Shown: positions 19,354-50,781, counted from the first letter of the stretch. The stretch is DNA of 64,000 nt from Mycobacteriaceae bacterium (GCA_963630875.1 CAVGOI010000006.1:2531-66530); one strand, 5' to 3'. Notes: generated by a model not told the origin, from the letters alone. Numbers and translations: made by a program.

Positions 19354-19783
19354 AACAGAGTATTTTATCGGTTGGGAGTTGTTTGTAGAGCGAGAAACCG
19401 ACCTTTCGGTATAGGTTCTGCGCCCGAAGGTTGTTGTCTGCGACTACCAAATAGACCCGCTGAACTTTCCGCCGCCGTAGTTCGGCGATAAGGCGCTGCA
19501 TAAGTTCCGTGCCGTAGCCCTTCCCCCGCTGTACAGGGTCTATCCAAATATCGTACAGCCACCACGAGTAACGCTTTATCTCACGGCTGAACTTACGGCG
19601 TATCACCCCACAGCCAAGCAGCGTATTTCCTTCTTTAAGCAGCATAAAACAAGACGCATAAAGTCCTGATAATGAGAGTATTGCATACCCCCCCCTATTG
19701 GTGTACTTGCGTATCTCCTTATCAGGGAAATAGGCATGAACTACGGCATAATCCGCTTGGGTATACGGAACGAGTATCGGCAT
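19343..19783 (-). CDS. GNAT family N-acetyltransferase
   Basis: 146 aa with acetyl-CoA motif A (VQRGKGYGTELMQRL). Overlaps the downstream gene by 11 nt. Confidence 0.85.
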   Translation of the reverse strand: MPILVPYTQADYAVVHAYFPDKEIRKYTNRGGYAILSLSGLYASCFMLLKEGNTLLGCGVIRRKFSREIKRYSWWLYDIWIDPVQRGKGYGTELMQRLIAELRRRKVQRVYLVVADNNLRAQNLYRKVGFSLYKQLPTDKILCYDL

Positions 19784-20969: not shown

Positions 20970-22058
20970 TTAAAAATTGACACTTTTCGTATATAGTTCA
21001 TAGAGCGTGTCTGCCACTACGGGCGTGGTATAACGGGCGGGCAATGCTGGCGACGACAAATGCCCTACCGCCATGGCTTGGCGCAAACAGTGCGCTACAT
21101 CGGCAGCCTCGTAAGTGCAGAGAAACGCATTCGGCACACCCGCCACGACCTCCCGCACATCGCCCACATCGGTCGATACCACAGGACAGCCACACGCCAC
21201 CGCCTCTTTGATAAACTGCGGGCTCCCCTCCGAGAACGAAGTCAGCAGCGCACAATCACACGCATTATATAGCAGCGGCATCTGCTCACGGGTATAGCCG
21301 AAGAGTTCTAGGAGAACAACACTACGACCACTCCAACCTCTCCTTACCCCTCCAGAGGAGGGGGATTCCGATGCGCTATTAGCCCCCTCTCTGAGGGGGA
21401 AGGGGGAGTCGGGAGCAGGGCTTGTGCTGTATACTATCTCCACCGCTTTCTTTGCCAATGGGTAGTTCTTCACACGGTCGGAGAACTCTTTCGAGAACAA
21501 GATATAGGTAGTATGCTCGTCCCACCCCAATCGCTTGCGGCACGCCGTTCTATCCATAGGGTGGAATGCCTCTGTATCCACCGAGCACGGCACGACTGCC
21601 GCATGACGCACCCGCCCCGCTTTCTGCAGCAGTTGCTCCGAGACAAAGATATTACAATCCGACAACCGCATCGCCAAACGAGATAACCACCTGACCGAAC
21701 CGCTATTCACATCGCTGCCGTGGAAAGTGGAGAATGTCTTAGTTGAGTGTTGAGAGTTGAGAGTTGAGAGAAGTGGAGAGTGGAGAGTTGAGCGTTTGGT
21801 ACAGAGTTTCGTGGTCAACGCTGCCACCAAACAGCACAGACCGCTATGCCCATGCACCATATCGGGGCGATACGAACGCACGGCTTTCGGTATGCCCCAC
21901 AACGCACGGACATACCCCCGCCAACCACCGGCAATCAGGTAGTACTCCACCTCCACCCCTTTGGCACGCAATGCCTGCACCTGCTCATAGATAAAAGGCG
22001 CAACATACTCCGTATACGGAGCATAATACCGACGACTGCAAACGATTAGTACTTTCAT
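20970..22058 (-). CDS. Family 4 (GT-B) glycosyltransferase, paralog 1, with in-frame repeat insertions
   Basis: 362 aa. MKVLIVCS start, VHGHSGLC, TFHGSDV, the EX7E-region SFSEGSPQFIKEAVACGCPVVSTDVGDV, and C-terminus TLYELYTKSVNF. Confidence 0.8.
   Translation of the reverse strand: MKVLIVCSRRYYAPYTEYVAPFIYEQVQALRAKGVEVEYYLIAGGWRGYVRALWGIPKAVRSYRPDMVHGHSGLCCLVAALTTKLCTKRSTLHSPLLSTLNSQHSTKTFSTFHGSDVNSGSVRWLSRLAMRLSDCNIFVSEQLLQKAGRVRHAAVVPCSVDTEAFHPMDRTACRKRLGWDEHTTYILFSKEFSDRVKNYPLAKKAVEIVYSTSPAPDSPFPLREGANSASESPSSGGVRRGWSGRSVVLLELFGYTREQMPLLYNACDCALLTSFSEGSPQFIKEAVACGCPVVSTDVGDVREVVAGVPNAFLCTYEAADVAHCLRQAMAVGHLSSPALPARYTTPVVADTLYELYTKSVNF
21329..21410. repeat. Palindromic element translated in-frame within GT4 paralog 1
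   Basis: Contains two 7-bp stem hairpins, cccctccagaggagggg and ccccctctctgaggggg. The outer arms actccaacctctccttacccctc / gagggggaagggggagt are imperfect complements. Encodes ...DSPFPLREGANSASESPSSGGVRRGW... Confidence 0.7.
21740..21795. repeat. Heptanucleotide array (TTGAGNG/TGGAGAG on + strand) within GT4 paralog 1
   Basis: tag ttgagtg ttgagag ttgagag ttgagag aag tggagag tggagag ttgagcg. Translated as KRSTLHSPLLSTLNSQHSTK just before the TFHGSD motif. Confidence 0.75.
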
Positions 22059-23431
22059 AACACAACTACCCTACTCGACCCAAGCGAGCAGGGAACCAAA
22101 TAGAACGGAAAACGAAACTTAATGCGCGAGGAGTGCCGAATAGATGGCTTGCAGCGTGCGTGCCACTTGCGGATTGGTAAGCCCCTGCGACAACAGACGC
22201 TCCCGTGCTTCGGTACGGAACTCCGAGGCAGCACTTTGCTGCTGCGAATATATGGGGGGGGGGTAAAATTAAGCACCATTCGTAGCAACATAGCGAGTTC
22301 GTGCGGGTCGCGACTGTTCGCCACGGCACAACCGGTAATACGCTCTATGCGTTCCCGCACATCGCCCACATCGACAGACACTATCGGGCACCCACACGCC
22401 ATCGCTTCTTTTATCACTTGCGGACTTCCCTCCTGCCGGCTTGTCAACAGCAAACAATCAGCCGCACACATCAACCGATTAACCGTAGAGCGAGAGAAAC
22501 CACGGAGTTCAATTAGACTCCCTCTCTCCCCCTCAAAGAGGGGGGATTCAGAGCATGCACATGCCCCCACTCTGAGGGGGAAAGAGGAGTCAGAGTTGCG
22601 TTTTGGAAGACATGCTATTACTTCCTCTGCTAATGCAGCGTCTTTGACCGAGTTATCAAAAGCGCCGGCAAAGAGAATAAGACGCCTATTCTGTATCTCG
22701 CTGAATGAATATACCTTACGCTCTTTACCGTCAGAAACAGTACACTGCAAGCTCATCTCTGCCAAGCGCCTGCGTGCCTCCGACCGAGAGAGCAGTTGCT
22801 CCTCCGAAAGCGTTACCCCGCACGGTAGCAGTGAGTAGTTATCGCCTCTATACGCCCAAAGAGCAAACCATTTCCCTTCGGCACGCGCCGTGCGTATGTT
22901 TGCCCTCGATACAAAGATATTCCATGCTGAGAGCCGCATTGCCCACCGCGACAGCCACAGTACACGAGGCGTGTTTATATCGCTCCCGTGGTAAGTGGTG
23001 ATAACTTTAGTTGAGCGTTGAGCGTTGAGCGTTGAGTGCAGTTTAGAGTTGAGAGAAGTTGAGCGTTGAGCGTTGAGCGTTGAGTGCAGTTGAGCGTTGA
23101 GAGTTGAGTGTTGAGTGCAGTTTAGAGAAGTTGAGCGTTGAGCGTTGAGTGTTGAGTGCAGTTTAGAGTGGATAGTGGATAGTTTAGCGTGTATCGTAGC
23201 CAGATTGGCAAGCAGACCGCAGAGCCCGTAGTGTGCATGGACGATATCCGGGCGCTCCGTGCATATAGTTTGCCGCAGGCGAGGTATCTCCCGCAGGTAA
23301 CCACGCACCCCTTTCCCCCGCACGGCATACCGCACGACCTCGTGCGAGAGGTCTTGCAACGCCTGCATTTGCTCCTCCACAAACGGAGCGAAATGCCCAC
23401 CTTTGTCCGCTGCCACTATCAGGATTTTCAT
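22055..23431 (-). CDS. Family 4 (GT-B) glycosyltransferase, paralog 2; C-terminus out of frame at a C10 tract as sequenced
   Basis: MKILIVAADKGG, VHAHYGLCGL, TYHGSDI and SRQEGSPQVIKEAMACGCPIVSVDVGDV. After the poly-C (22254-22263) the listed frame gives a basic, non-protein-like tail that runs into the next gene. The +1C frame ends at 22119 with a paralog-like C-terminus. Confidence 0.75.
   Translation of the reverse strand: MKILIVAADKGGHFAPFVEEQMQALQDLSHEVVRYAVRGKGVRGYLREIPRLRQTICTERPDIVHAHYGLCGLLANLATIHAKLSTIHSKLHSTLNAQRSTSLNCTQHSTLNAQLHSTLNAQRSTSLNSKLHSTLNAQRSTKVITTYHGSDINTPRVLWLSRWAMRLSAWNIFVSRANIRTARAEGKWFALWAYRGDNYSLLPCGVTLSEEQLLSRSEARRRLAEMSLQCTVSDGKERKVYSFSEIQNRRLILFAGAFDNSVKDAALAEEVIACLPKRNSDSSFPLRVGACACSESPLFEGERGSLIELRGFSRSTVNRLMCAADCLLLTSRQEGSPQVIKEAMACGCPIVSVDVGDVRERIERITGCAVANSRDPHELAMLLRMVLNFTPPPYIRSSKVLPRSSVPKHGSVCCRRGLPIRKWHARCKPSIRHSSRIKFRFPFYLVPCSLGSSRVVVL
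22254..22263. repeat. G10 (+ strand) / C10 (coding strand) homopolymer
   Basis: atat-gggggggggg-taaaatt, counted directly. Confidence 0.9.
22516..22591. repeat. Palindromic element translated in-frame within GT4 paralog 2
   Basis: gactccctctctccccctcaaagaggggggattcagagcatgcacatgcccccactctgagggggaaagaggagtc. The terminal arms are near-perfect reverse complements. It sits at the same position in the protein as the element in paralog 1 (...DSSFPLRVGACACSESPLFEGERGS...). Confidence 0.75.
23008..23185. repeat. Roughly 178-nt heptanucleotide array (TTGAGCG/TTGAGTG on + strand; CTCAACG on coding strand) within GT4 paralog 2
   Basis: Runs of 3-4 consecutive ttgagcg units are separated by cagtttagag blocks. 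Three units (21 nt) translate to the 7-aa period LNAQRST, seen three times in the protein. Confidence 0.85.
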
Positions 23432-29373: not shown

Positions 29374-29446
29374 GTTGCAGGCAATATGTACGCAATTTTT
29401 CCAAAAAAAATCAATGGTCAATTACATGGTAATTACAGTTGATGGG

Positions 29447-29639
29447 TTTATGGGTTTAGTTTATCCGTTTATGGGTTTATGCGTGGTTTAGTTGGTTTAT
29501 GGGTTTATCCGTTTATGGGTTGATGAGTTTATGCGTGGTTTAGTTGGTTTTGGGTTAAGGGGTTAAGCAGCAACTCTTTCACTTCTCAACCCACTAAACC
29601 CATTCAACCACGCATAAACGGATAAACTAAACCCATAAA
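29447..29639. repeat. 26-bp perfect inverted repeat separated by 141 nt, embedded in tandemly duplicated 'gtttatggg' word repeats
   Basis: tttatgggtttagtttatccgtttat (29447-29472) is the exact reverse complement of ataaacggataaactaaacccataaa (29614-29639). The left arm region is itself duplicated (29445-29498 and 29495-29550). Confidence 0.85.
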
Positions 29640-29651
29640 CTCATAAACAAC

Positions 29652-29693
29652 ACTCAACTTCCCCCCCTCTTTGAGGTGGGGGAAGGGGGAGTC
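29652..29693. repeat. Solo hairpin copy of the GT-borne palindromic element
   Basis: actcaacttccccccctc-ttt-gaggtgggggaagggggagtc. It shares the exact 16-mer gggggaagggggagtc with 21395-21410 and is followed by a T6 run. Confidence 0.7.
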
Positions 29694-34989: not shown

Positions 34990-36318
34990 ATGAAGGATAT
35001 TCAATTTTCCTACGCGAAAGCCGTGAGCGCGGACGCAGTAAGTGCGTACAAAGCCCCAATCGCCCACTGTCAGGAACAGTTGGTACAAGGCACGGGCAAA
35101 GGCAGTGATTTCTTGGGTTGGCTGACCTTGCCCGAAGACATCAAGCCGCAACTTCAAGACATTCAAGCCACAGCCGACCTGCTCCGCCGTGAGTGCGAGG
35201 TCATCGTTTGCATCGGCATAGGCGGCAGTTACTTGGGAGCGAAAGCCGTTATCGATGCACTTTCGAACTCCTTTGCATGGATTGAAAACAAAAAGCCGCT
35301 CATCGTCTATGCGGGACAGAACATCGGCGAGGACTACCTCTACGAGTTGCAGGAACTGCTGAAAGACAAACAATTCGGCCTCATCTGTATATCGAAATCA
35401 GGAACTACGACCGAACCTGCTCTCGCCTTCCGTCTGCTCAAGACGCAGTTGGAGAAGCAGCAGGGCGCAGCGGCGGCGCAAAAACGCATCGTCTGCATTA
35501 CGGACGCCAAGAAGGGAGCATTGCGCACCCTCGCCACGCAGGAGGGGTATAAGACCTTCGTCATCGAAGACAACATCGGCGGACGCTTCTCCGTCCTCTC
35601 GCCGGTGGGACTGCTACCTATCGCCTGCGCAGGGTTTGACATTCACGCCCTCATCGACGGCGCAGCGCGTATGGCAGCGATCTGCGGCATCGACACGCCT
35701 TTTGAGCAGAACCCTGCCGCCCTCTACGCAGCAGCCCGCAACAGCCTCTATTCGGAACAACACAAGAAGATCGAATTATTGGTGAATTTCCATCCCAAAC
35801 TCCACAATGTAAGCGAGTGGTGGAAACAACTCTACGGCGAATCGGAAGGCAAAGAGCATAAGGGGATATTCCCTGCCGGCGTTGACTTTACAACGGATCT
35901 GCACTCTATGGGTCAGTACATACAAGAGGGGGAACGCCATTTGTTCGAGACGGTTATTTCGGTCGAAGAGCCGAACCACAAGGTAGAGTTTCCCTACGAC
36001 GAAGCCAACTTGGACGGACTGAATTTCTTGGCCGGCAAACGCGTGGACGAAGTAAACAAGATGGCGGAACTTGGCACGATGCTGGCACATGTGGACGGCG
36101 GCGTCCCCAATATGAAGGTGACGCTTCCGAGACTTGACGAATATTACCTCGGCGAACTTATCTACTTCTTTGAGCGTGCCTGCGGCCTGTCGGGCTACTT
36201 GTTAGGAGTTAACCCGTTCAACCAACCGGGCGTCGAGGCTTACAAGAAGAACATGTTTGCCCTCCTCGACAAACCCGGCTACGAATCCGAGTCCAAAGCC
36301 CTTAAAGCGAGATTGTAA
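34990..36318 (+). CDS. pgi: Glucose-6-phosphate isomerase
   Basis: 442 aa with [26 protein letters not shown] and the SIS-domain C-terminal motifs. Confidence 0.95.
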
Positions 36319-36335
36319 GTCTCAAATTTATACAC

Positions 36336-36367
36336 AAAAAAGCGGCACCATAATGCCGCTTTTTTTA
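36336..36367. terminator. Bidirectional intrinsic terminator
   Basis: aaaaaa-AGCGGCA-ccataa-TGCCGCT-ttttttt: a 7-bp GC-rich stem flanked by A and T runs, between convergent pgi and the AT-rich gene. Confidence 0.8.
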
Positions 36368-36387
36368 TTGTTAGTATATTTCGAACT

Positions 36388-37470
36388 TTATATTTCGTCA
36401 TCATATAGATTTCTCTTTTTCATGCTATAGTAAGACACAATAATGTAGTACATTATGTCACCACCTTTACTTAATGATTTTTCAAATGATATTGTAATAG
36501 GTCTATATTCGTAATCATCTACAAATGCCCCACATGTACAGAATTTGTCATCTTCTTCATCTGTAAGTACTCTAAAATTAGAGTACTTTCTCTCATATTG
36601 AGATTTTACAGACTCGAAAAACATTAGAGCCTCTTCCTTTTTCCATGAATAAAATGGCTTTTGTAAATAGACCGAAACCAATTTTCCTTGTATAAAATAG
36701 AATGTTGCATACTGGTATGTTGTACCACCTATTTTTGTTTCATAGTAGTGTAACATATGTGAGTCAGAATCTAAAAGTCTATCGCTTTTGAGTCCTATGG
36801 TTCTACGCACTGTTTCCCTATCATCTCCAAACTTAACACCAGCAACTCCATATACTTTATTCTGTTCACAATAATCTGGCAAATTATTAAACTCATCCAC
36901 TAATTGTCTCAGTCCTGAAAAAAGGAGATTATAATACGTATCCTCACTAATGTATGAACAGCCAAATATAGAATCTGAAGAAGATGTCATTACTATTGTA
37001 TGTTCATCATGCCGAGACCATGTTTTAACACCCAAAAATTCTGCACTATCAGTAATTTGTTTAAATAAGAGTGTACTATCAGCAACCTCTAAACTTCCAT
37101 ATTTCTTATTCAATTTTTTTTGCACTATTTTTGTATATTGAATACAATCACCATTGCAACTATCTTGCATTAAGATTGCAAAGAAAGTATCATTCAAAAA
37201 GCTGACACCAATGGCATGAAATGTCTGCCCCTCGTGGTCATAGTCACCCTCGTAGTCGTATCTGGAGAAATGTATTTCATAAGTGTCATCATGGATAATA
37301 CTATCAATACTTTCGTGCAATTTGAAACCTTGTGCGGTTATTGCCTTTTGCACCTCCTCGGTTGTAGATTTACCCAAAGTACATCCGAAAAATGTGTTTT
37401 GAACACTCGTTTCTGCCAACATCGACAGGGTAGAAACCATTACAATGGCAAAAGATAAAAAATATCTCAT
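36388..37470 (-). CDS. Hypothetical secreted protein with two related domains, in an AT-rich islet
   Basis: 360 aa with signal peptide MRYFLSFAIVMVSTLSMLAETS. The two halves share a pattern (FFGCTLGKSTTEEVQKAI... / VYGVAGVKFGDDRETVRRTI..., each followed by an aromatic-rich sheet region and ...KKYG / ...RKYS). A hand count gives G+C of 18/60 at 36421-36480, against 31/60 at 36241-36300. Confidence 0.6.
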   Translation of the reverse strand: MRYFLSFAIVMVSTLSMLAETSVQNTFFGCTLGKSTTEEVQKAITAQGFKLHESIDSIIHDDTYEIHFSRYDYEGDYDHEGQTFHAIGVSFLNDTFFAILMQDSCNGDCIQYTKIVQKKLNKKYGSLEVADSTLLFKQITDSAEFLGVKTWSRHDEHTIVMTSSSDSIFGCSYISEDTYYNLLFSGLRQLVDEFNNLPDYCEQNKVYGVAGVKFGDDRETVRRTIGLKSDRLLDSDSHMLHYYETKIGGTTYQYATFYFIQGKLVSVYLQKPFYSWKKEEALMFFESVKSQYERKYSNFRVLTDEEDDKFCTCGAFVDDYEYRPITISFEKSLSKGGDIMYYIIVSYYSMKKRNLYDDEI

Positions 37471-37555
37471 ATGTATTTGATTTATTATATTTCTACATTA
37501 CAGCGAGCCACCTTGCGCAAGTATATATGGCATCACTACACATCCTTCTCGACTG

Positions 37556-37587
37556 CAAAGATACTGCTTTTCCAAAAAATATGCAAA
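37556..37587 (-). promoter_or_regulatory. Promoter TTTG-N20-TATCTTTG for the AT-rich gene
   Basis: The minus strand reads gtTTGcatattttttggaaaagcagTATCTTTG with a full TTTG at -33. It lies about 85 nt upstream of the ATG at 37470. Confidence 0.6.
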
Positions 37588-37660
37588 CAAAAGCCCATTC
37601 CGCTCGCAAAAAGCAACGACCCGCGAGAGACCCGCGACAAATTCACAATGTCCCCACTCG

Positions 37661-38194
37661 CTATTTGCGCATACGGATGACCCGTGCCGGATTGCCGGCG
37701 ACGATGGCATAATCCGGAACATCATGGGTAACAACCGACCCCGCACCGATAATGCTATGCGCTCCGATGCGTTTGCAGCCCGGCAGGACAATGGCACGCG
37801 CCCCTATCCACACATCACCGCCTATCTCCAAGGGTGTTTGCCGCTCGACTTCCGTTTCAGCCACAGCACCAATCGGCACATCGGGGTCTGCGAAGGAATG
37901 TGCCCCCCCCAGAAACAATACCTCTTCGCCCATCAACAGCCTGTCGTGTATCACCAACGGACGATTGTGGGTACAGAAATCTTTCCCTATGCCGACATGG
38001 TTGCCGACACGGATATTCTTGCCATTGCCGAAGTAGGCACCCTGCTCCACATTCACATCGTTGCCGCACGCCGCAAACAGATGCTTGGCACACCGATAGC
38101 GCAACCGATACGCCACACGCCCCAAGAGCGGTTTCGTGGATTTGGGCAAGTGCCGTGCAAAGGCGTAATACACTATCAACCAAACTGTTCTCAT
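37661..38194 (-). CDS. Hexapeptide-repeat (LbH) O-acetyltransferase (WcaF/maltose acetyltransferase-like)
   Basis: 177 aa with [49 protein letters not shown]-type overlap with fcl. Confidence 0.85.
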
Positions 38195-42285: not shown

Positions 42286-42349
42286 CCTGTTTTTCATCGG
42301 ACTAAATAAAACCGTCCCCCCCCCATCTTAGTACCAAGCCCCAAAATAG

Positions 42350-42477
42350 TCAACCCCCAAACGGGACATAACAATATAGGACAAATCAGCCACTAATCAG
42401 CCACTTATATCCATACCACATCCTTAGCACTACCCTAGCACTACCTTAGCACCTATGACTCTTATATGGGTTTTAGA
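42350..42477. repeat. Promoter-proximal intergenic repeat, copy B (with cccccaaacgggacat head)
   Basis: Positions 42373-42477 align with 18017-18132. The head 42350-42369 (tcaacccccaaacgggacat) matches 48745-48764. Confidence 0.7.
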
Positions 42478-42516
42478 CCTCTTTTGAATGCCCTCTTGAC
42501 CTTTCCTTCCCATCCG

Positions 42517-42576
42517 TCAAAGATGCCTTTTACTATCCCTGTCCTTTCTTCAAAGATGCCTTTTACTATCCCTGTC
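42517..42576. repeat. 33-nt period tandem repeat (2 copies plus a degenerate third)
   Basis: tcaaagatgccttttactatccctgtc occurs at 42517-42543 and again exactly at 42550-42576. A degenerate copy, ccgaagatacccctgtcc, follows. Confidence 0.85.
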
Positions 42577-42640
42577 TTTTTTCCGAAGATACCCCTGTCC
42601 TACGATGCTTATTCTTCCATTGAGGGGTGTAGTATATAGC

Positions 42641-50752: not shown

Positions 50753-50781
50753 GGGGGGGGGTATTTTTTATAGTACTTTTG
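50753..50781 (+). promoter_or_regulatory. -7 box TACTTTTG (50774-50781) preceded by a G9 tract (50753-50761)
   Basis: tag-ggggggggg-tattttttatagTACTTTTGcagcg. The -7 box is 24 nt upstream of the susC-like ATG at 50805. Confidence 0.5.

Follow-up and report, generated by a model that had tools for sequence, protein, structure and literature searches.

The heptamer-type tandem array translated inside a glycosyltransferase gene of the window (the whole stretch of 64,000 nucleotides that was analysed) is, in our estimate with a probability of about 0.7, a coding minisatellite tolerated in a permissive loop, where selection filters the reading frame and the encoded peptide is passive. A non-triplet repeat in a surface-polysaccharide gene usually suggests phase variation; this array is instead in frame and stable. 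Our comparisons single out another repeat of the same gene, a poly-C tract, as its likely real switch.

The locus of the host gene is a surface-polysaccharide (capsule/LPS) locus. A Wzi-like gene and a WbaP-like sugar transferase lie upstream (Pfam), and a second glycosyltransferase gene, a FemAB-like gene and a GNAT acetyltransferase lie downstream. The two glycosyltransferases are called paralog 1 and paralog 2 here:

22055..23431, minus strand: GT4 glycosyltransferase paralog 2, the host of the array (458-aa open reading frame; Pfam, Foldseek, homologues)
20970..22058, minus strand: GT4 glycosyltransferase paralog 1 (362 aa; 37% identical to paralog 2)

Paralog 2 is predicted to be a retaining GT4 glycosyltransferase with a GT-B fold. 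The two Rossmann-like domains that define this fold are recovered by Pfam, AF2 and Foldseek: the N-terminal domain matches Glyco_transf_4 (residues 30-92) and Glyco_trans_4_4, the C-terminal domain matches Glyco_trans_1_4 and Glycos_transf_1 (residues 250-387), and Foldseek relates the model to BshA, MshA, WbnH, PglA and PimA with a probability of 1.0. The catalytic E-x7-E is present (E334 and E342, EGSPQVIKE) and invariant in an alignment of 88 sequences, in which the other invariant columns are also intact. The protein exceeds the family norm by about 115 aa.

The array itself consists of a body and a leader, and part of the body is organized in longer blocks:

23009..23166, minus strand: imperfect tandem array of 20 CT[C/A]AAC units (TRF, pattern search, unit parse)
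23167..23187, minus strand: array leader, CTAAAC followed by (ATCCACT) x2.4, encoding KLSTIHS (TRF and sequence)
23009..23103, minus strand: 48-nt higher-order block in two copies (TRF period 48, 2.0 copies, 95% matches)

The initial annotation had reported runs of a CTCAACG heptamer translated within paralog 2. The repeat and its translation are real (23009-23187, by TRF and by translation of the open reading frame), but the array is an interrupted composite of 7- and 10-nt units, not a clean heptamer tract. The open reading frame reads through it as ...HSTLNAQRSTSLNCTQHSTLNAQLHSTLNAQRSTSLNSKLHSTLNAQRSTKVITTYHGSD, and its body encodes a low-complexity peptide of the STLNAQR type at residues ~89-141. 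With slashes separating the segments, the coding strand of 23009-23187 starts with CTAAAC (ATCCACT)x2.4 / CTAAACTGCA / CTCAACA CTCAACG CTCAACG CTCAACT / TCT, goes on with CTAAACTGCA / CTCAACA CTCAACT CTCAACG CTCAACTGCA / CTCAACGx3 CTCAACT / TCT, and ends with CTCAACT CTAAACTGCA / CTCAACGx3 CTCAACT / AAAGTT. The 20 units (GTT[G/T]AG) follow one another at 19 spacings, thirteen of 7 nt and six of 10 nt (7 plus GCA or TCT). GCA/TCT and C>A variants break the array every 2-4 units; perfect heptamer tracts reach at most 27 nt, or 3.86 units, a length that occurs twice. TRF describes 23010-23156 as a period of 7 with 18.9 copies, 74% matches and 19% indels, and the leader (23167-23183) as a period of 7 with 100% matches; it also finds higher-order periods of 24, 41, 48, 72 and 79. 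The 48-nt block is made of four heptamers and two decamers, i.e., six units, and is in frame. The three-unit pattern CTCAACNCTCAACNCTCAAC, with at most two mismatches, has 11 matches in the window, all in the two GT4 paralogs, versus 0.00 expected (100 shuffles). No RNA structure was found in the heptamer array (MFE -6.4 kcal/mol, z = +1.44), which is not palindromic. A unit of either length, 7 or 10 nt, moves the codon phase by +1, and the frame survives only where the unit number changes by a multiple of three (3n); the earlier statement that gain or loss of one or two units would shift it is arithmetically true.

The array is contained in an expanded loop between two conserved motifs:

22997..23218, minus strand: expanded loop from HAHYGLC to TYHGSD, residues 72-145, 222 nt (motif spacing, AF2)

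In ~118 of the ~160 related loci that a motif-based search took from genome and metagenome collections, 42 nt (14 aa; in some cases 45 nt) separate H-x-H-x-G-L-[CS] from T-[YF]-H-G-S-D, and 42 nt is the ancestral loop length. The 222 nt of the window loop exceed it by 180 nt, or 60 aa. An insert of about 55 aa in a normally short loop had been claimed; the comparison with the 14-aa norm bears this out, but the size has to be corrected to 60 aa. Motif spacing, Pfam and AF2 agree with its described position between HAHYGLC and TYHGSD of a GT-B enzyme.

The AF2 model (88-sequence alignment) gives the GT-B core a pLDDT >90. For the window allele it draws a helix at residues 69-103, a coil, a helix at 120-136 and a strand at 142-147, so that the insert appears as a low-confidence helical hairpin between the first helix and the strand (pLDDT 51-60 at residues 101-140). 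The insert site is modelled as a helix-to-strand connection of the N-terminal Rossmann-like domain. Loops of this type are found on the side of the domain away from the strand C-termini, which make up the substrate cleft. Judging from the DSSP string and from Rossmann topology, the protrusion would face away from the catalytic cleft, and we infer that the Ser/Thr/Leu/Asn/Gln-rich peptide is a weakly structured protrusion without a role of its own.

Loop lengths are all 0 mod 3 in both paralogs across the ~160 related loci. The expanded alleles, about 20 in number with at least 15 distinct lengths, range from 51 to 222 nt: 222, 210, 174, 171 (two sequences), 132, 108, 99, 96, 84, 78, 75, 72, 69 and 51 nt in paralog 2, and 168, 150, 135, 108, 105 and 60 nt in paralog 1. 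No out-of-frame loop allele was found in either paralog (~160 loci, ~20 expanded), in a set of majority-consensus metagenome assemblies where minority out-of-frame cells would stay invisible, and with gene callers and a motif-based search that favour intact alleles. Under frame-neutral change one third of the alleles would be in frame, which for 15 independent alleles gives an expectation of ~(1/3)^14. The values of dN/dS, for pairs that span divergences from 2% to saturation, are 0.05-0.16 upstream of the array (residues 1-78) and 0.13-0.26 downstream (142-388). Because they are low on both sides, the protein is read through the array. These allele comparisons show an array that purifying selection keeps in frame.

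The comparison of array length among strains that the initial annotation had proposed does reveal a difference (222 versus 174 nt), but one of a single in-frame 48-nt block. A 90%-identity protein cluster comprises six proteins from different assemblies, with a loop of 222 nt in four of them and of 174 nt in two; the shorter allele (L002/P0001/P0152) lacks one 48-nt block and is the sole strain-level length variant. Three assemblies with different flanking genes (L001, L168, L169) have base-identical arrays, and their poly-C tracts are C9, C8 and C10. An assembly artefact is an unlikely source of the array, because these three independent assemblies share one identical 222-nt array. The window loop differs from theirs by six substitutions and no length change, with ~1.3% divergence over the remaining gene. 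Among these strains the array changes far less than the poly-C tract of paralog 2 does.

Among the open reading frames retrieved with the N-terminal 101 residues as query, none had been cut short by a simple frameshift within the array. Two candidates for such truncation were rejected. One, P0017 (290 aa, 94% identity), had the look of a frameshifted, N-terminally truncated allele but results from an N-run scaffold gap beside the array in L080. The other, P0134 (L162), has an internal deletion of nearly all of paralog 2 in which the array is not involved. One Logan contig (L161/P0121) departs from the gene 37 nt past the array into unrelated sequence at the contig end. A scan of metagenome contigs returned only relatives of at most 52% identity, which added loop-length statistics and no alleles of this array. 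Contigs break at the array, with consequences for MAG assembly.

The poly-C tract lies further downstream in paralog 2:

22254..22263, minus strand: poly-C tract, C10 on the coding strand and G10 on the plus strand (allele comparison, AF2)

Its length goes from C8 to C13 among relatives, near-identical strains included, and all three frames are found downstream of it, with the caveat that short-read assemblies can miscall homopolymers. With the C10 of the window, the canonical ...LTNPQVARTLQAIYSALLAH helix falls out of frame and the C-terminal ~65 aa are non-canonical. The canonical ...RTEARERLLSQGLTNPQVARTLQAIYSALLAH end is found in 11 of 17 close database proteins; within the 90% cluster, P0150 and P0153 have it, and it is absent from the window, P0001, P0151 and P0152. 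In AF2 the C-terminal helix has a pLDDT >90 in P0003, a natural allele with a short loop and the canonical frame, and the window tail has ~30. The window allele thus lacks the C-terminal helix that completes the GT4 fold, a peculiarity of this allele and not of the gene family. Going by these alleles, the poly-C tract probably decides whether the enzyme is complete and looks like a more credible switch of paralog 2 than the heptamer array. Any on/off or C-terminal switching of paralog 2 would, we infer, come from 22254-22263 and not from the heptamers.

Two further repeat features of the window lie in these genes:

21741..21796, minus strand: shorter CTCAACN/CTCCACT heptamer array in the homologous loop of paralog 1 (loop of 105 nt) (TRF)
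22510..22590, minus strand: second in-frame insert of paralog 2, a G/C-rich palindrome of ~75 nt translated SDSSFPLRVGACACSESPLFEGERGS (RNA fold)

The palindrome has an RNA fold of -52.7 kcal/mol (z = -5.65), and its core has four matches in the window versus 0.18 expected. The corresponding insert (residues ~279-304) is also predicted to lie in a helix-to-strand connection, with a pLDDT <50 at residues 282-295. In other lineages, the GT4 loop contains an octamer array, (AAATTTAC)x3.6, translated YKFTNLQI (L011, L013, L015, L091, L092), or a palindrome, CCCCCTCTTTGAGGGGG (L006, L007, L008, L010, L163, L167); in L006, L007, L008 and L010 the palindrome is given as CCCCCTCTTTGAGGGGGCAAGGGGGGAGTC, translated SPSLRGQGGS, and in L163 and L167 it comes after a heptamer array. 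In L008, a truncated paralog 1 is followed by a second N-terminus similar to that of paralog 2, which looks like a mixture produced by MAG assembly.

The DNA of the two paralogs can be aligned essentially in the inserts and in the DVGDVRE motif alone. Their loop cassettes are 82-93% identical, versus 37% for the proteins. In L167 the cassettes of both paralogs are 82% identical over 95 nt and the flanking coding DNA is 54-60% identical, and paralog 2 of the window shares 40 of 43 nt with paralog 1 of L006 at the array leader. Since the cassettes are closer than their flanks, they would either postdate the split of the paralogs or be homogenized by gene conversion. This likeness hints at ongoing exchange, for which a purely passive picture has no need.

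The wider sequence context is also rich in repeats. TRF finds 17 tandem arrays with a score >=40 in the window, versus 0.7 in Markov shuffles; 15 of the 17 are intergenic and periods 7 and 11 dominate. Related loci have 2.6-5.5 tandem arrays per 10 kb. The lineage is an uncultured group of gut Bacteroidales in whose genomes tandem repeats of 7, 8 and 11 nt are unusually abundant, and our literature searches found no description of these repeats in Bacteroidales. The CTCAACN array is confined to the two paralogs in the 64-kb window and to L001, L002 and L080 among 162 loci; the other arrays of the window use other units.

The tolerated minisatellite probably arose from a local 7-nt seed, with 10-nt variants, that expanded by replication slippage or unequal exchange. 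The site of expansion would be the permissive helix-to-strand loop in the N-terminal Rossmann domain of a GT4 enzyme, where selection would remove changes other than those of 3n units and let an in-frame low-complexity protrusion persist. Array length would then change rarely, as blocks of 24, 48 or 72 nt. The repeat load of the lineage and the variety of repeat classes in one loop count for such passive expansion in a tolerant loop.

The proposal of the initial annotation that the array is a phase-variation site, i.e., a contingency locus where slipped-strand mispairing of the heptamers reversibly switches the glycosyltransferase off and on, did not hold up, and we regard it as unlikely. It is attractive because the unit is not a multiple of 3, because the surface-polysaccharide locus has Wzi, a WbaP-like transferase and GT4 genes, and because intragenic heptanucleotide SSRs were proposed to be phase-variable in Haemophilus influenzae, where a permissive threshold of three units would also admit the two perfect 27-nt tracts described here (PMC2651432). 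Array length does vary between relatives, and the adjacent paralog has a second array at the same site. Yet, the ~20 expanded alleles of the ~160 loci include none out of frame, the length changes that were seen are in-frame blocks, and the search with the N-terminal fragment returned no simple frameshift truncation. The array is also base-identical in three strains whose poly-C tracts differ, and its perfect tracts have at most 3.86 units, versus 6-38 in the H. influenzae proposals. Another possibility, that paralog 2 is on its way to becoming a pseudogene and that repeat, palindrome and shifted C-terminus are all accumulated damage, seems to us very improbable. Gene decay had been named as an outcome that would undo the functional interpretation, and some observations point that way: the window allele has its canonical C-terminal helices out of frame and a tail pLDDT of ~30, the protein is much longer than its family norm, and L162/P0134 has lost almost all of paralog 2 by internal deletion. 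But dN/dS is 0.05-0.26 either side of the array, the frame is strictly kept across it in every allele, and E-x7-E and the other invariant columns are intact within a confidently predicted core fold. The C-terminal shift is moreover reversible in kind, since the near-identical P0150 and P0153 end in the canonical frame.

The protrusion could instead have been selected as an adaptive module, such as a spacer, an interaction surface or a membrane-association arm, or the arrays could serve as homology patches for exchange between paralogs; we hold this to be rather unlikely. The persistence of the expanded loop in the clade down to ~50% protein identity, the helical hairpin, and not pure coil, given by AF2 and the excess similarity of the paralog cassettes over flanks and proteins would all be expected from it. 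It is harder to reconcile with an insert whose sequence and repeat class (heptamer, octamer, palindrome) vary between lineages, with a pLDDT of just 51-60, and with a family that for the most part does without the insert and keeps a 42-nt loop. Chimeric paralog 2/paralog 1 genes joined at the arrays, which exchange might produce, were not seen. A related and equally doubtful idea is that the lineage has an active process that seeds and homogenizes repeat cassettes at helix-to-strand loops of enzymes. It is raised because one GT4 loop took three repeat classes and because paralogs of 37% identity share cassettes of 82-93% identity. If it were true, gene conversion or targeted insertion could remodel or recombine paralogous glycosyltransferases, beyond what passive slippage does.

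Tolerance of an in-frame minisatellite, the reading we prefer, has practical consequences. Automated predictions of phase-variable genes (phasomes) for uncultured gut Bacteroidales should demand tract perfection and alleles that toggle the frame before a switch is called. The 7-, 8- and 11-nt arrays and in-frame palindromes of this little-studied lineage affect MAG assembly, gene calling and the annotation of protein length. Three points deserve mention in their own right: one loop serves as a repeat hot spot, the paralogs share cassettes, and the repeat load extends across the lineage.

Among known systems, the simple sequence repeats of H. influenzae share with this array a 7-nt unit inside the ORF of a surface-structure gene, where a single-unit change shifts the frame. 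Intragenic examples include (AATTTTG)14 in hmw1A and (AACAACC)8-13 in a TonB-dependent receptor gene; heptanucleotide loci proposed as phase-variable have 6-38 units (detection threshold of three units), with perfect tracts of 8-14 units within genes and 13-38 in promoters, and strains differ in frame (PMC2651432). Those tracts are long and perfect, whereas this array has at most 3.9 perfect units, 3-nt spacers and no out-of-frame allele. Put in terms of what defines a contingency repeat, there is a non-triplet unit inside an ORF (7 and 10 nt), but the longest uninterrupted slippage-prone stretch is 27 nt (3.86 units) and strain lengths, all 0 mod 3, do not toggle the frame. With two of these three features absent, the array appears to work unlike a contingency SSR. 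It is the poly-C tract of paralog 2 that behaves like a classical homopolymer contingency tract.

Long heptanucleotide repeats are over-represented in some bacteria and depleted from coding DNA (Mrazek et al. 2007 via PMC4679880 and PMC4692102; PMC3315296), and the repeat load of this lineage fits that pattern. Also described are heptamer families in cyanobacteria, GGGNATC in Xanthomonas and Nostoc, and TAACTGA in Beggiatoaceae, Cyanobacteria and some Bacteroidetes (PMC4679880, PMC4692102). As in those dispersed families, 7-nt periods prevail in this lineage and short arrays of 2-6 units are abundant and mostly intergenic. However, the families reuse one motif genome-wide, whereas here the unit changes from locus to locus and the array is coding, with 20 units that are translated. 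As its motif is not dispersed, the array is not a member of these families.

The palindromic elements of Rickettsia (RPEs), MITE-like repeats found in frame inside protein genes (PMC10969869), resemble the array in placing repeat DNA in frame at a permissive site of a conserved enzyme whose gene is under purifying selection. They are dispersed, palindromic and of fixed length, whereas the heptamer array is non-palindromic and confined to two paralogs; it is not an RPE- or MITE-like element. The 75-nt palindrome at 22510-22590, with its four copies in the window, is the better analogue. The closest parallel lies in the in-frame coding VNTRs of bacterial surface proteins, with which the array shares a frame-preserving length polymorphism of a low-complexity segment. 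Their units are multiples of 3 and their hosts are surface proteins built of repeats, whereas here the units have 7 or 10 nt, the frame is kept through blocks of 3n units (24, 48, 72 nt) and the host is the core domain of an enzyme of the cytoplasmic face. The most fitting description of the array is that of an in-frame coding VNTR whose units are not triplets, which makes it a variant of known repeat types and not a new system.

The most plausible site of phase variation in paralog 2, the GT4 glycosyltransferase gene at 22055-23431 on the minus strand, is not the heptamer array (23009-23187, minus strand), which the initial annotation had put forward as a potential site. A poly-C tract in the same gene is the better candidate:

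22254-22263: homopolymer tract in paralog 2 (coding strand C10, plus strand G10)

This tract ranges from C8 to C13 across relatives, near-identical strains included, and sets which of three frames the last ~45-65 amino acids of paralog 2 fall in. In the window allele the canonical C-terminal helices are missing, and the ORF continues until it overlaps the start of paralog 1 (20970-22058, minus strand), the adjacent GT4 glycosyltransferase gene. The window contains four more G/C homopolymer tracts, of 8-9 nt (19688-19695, 37903-37910, 42316-42324 and 50753-50761), one of them within a GNAT acetyltransferase gene of the polysaccharide locus and two in intergenic spacers.

The heptamer array, whose 7/10-nt repeats are translated inside the loop between HAHYGLC and TYHGSD, hampers short-read MAG assembly in practice, because assemblies stop or are filled with N right there (~2370-2680 in L080 and 3030-3076 in L161, both related loci from other assemblies); directly past it, one Logan contig departs from the gene. 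Repeat inserts at this loop were compared between the paralogs (window paralog 2 array against paralog 1 arrays; L006 2644-2686; L167 loops) and showed 82-93% DNA identity, far more than the coding sequence around them (37% identity at the protein level); this points to gene conversion, or to parallel seeding once the duplication had taken place.

The polysaccharide locus also appears to have a recombination boundary at paralog 2, as argued by the onset of homology near the start of this gene and by its differing neighbours. In the closest genomes (upstream comparison with L001, L002, L080, L161, L163, L167 and L169), nucleotide homology begins at, or at most ~65 nt from, its start codon (upstream being from 23432 in the window). 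Upstream, the window and L168 have Wzi/WbaP genes, and other genomes have genes of MlaD-like, RhuM-like or epimerase/hexapeptide-transferase type; L169 differs on the downstream side as well, where the paralog is replaced. Some strains can apparently dispense with paralog 2, since one relative, L162, retains a 113-aa remnant (897-1238) in which residue 47 is joined to a shifted C-terminal tail; the adjoining paralog 1 has a loop of just 60 nt.

Short tandem arrays with periods of 7, 8 or 11 nt occupy nearly all intergenic spacers of the window (17 arrays vs 0.7 in shuffles), and their unit differs from locus to locus:

1825, 10239, 14194, 15853, 18051, 20881, 20926, 23508: tandem arrays
29414-29648, 32873, 42384-42590, 48800, 63082: tandem arrays

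Related Bacteroidales and Paludibacteraceae-like MAG loci have an equal density (2.6-5.5 per 10 kb). Separately, positions 36001-38000, around an ORF at 36388-37470 (minus strand), have a G+C of 41.5% vs ~52% elsewhere and may be foreign DNA by composition.

Both paralogs contain in frame a G/C-rich palindrome of ~75 nt, with CCCCCTCnnnGAGGGGG cores between GACTCC...GGAGTC flanks:

~22510-22590: copy in paralog 2
~21360-21420, core 21383-21399: copy in paralog 1
29663-29679: further occurrence, intergenic

The core has 4 matches in the window vs 0.18 expected, and the folding energy is -52.7 kcal/mol (z = -5.65). The palindrome is also present at the heptamer-array loop in other lineages, and it is similar to the Rickettsia palindromic elements.
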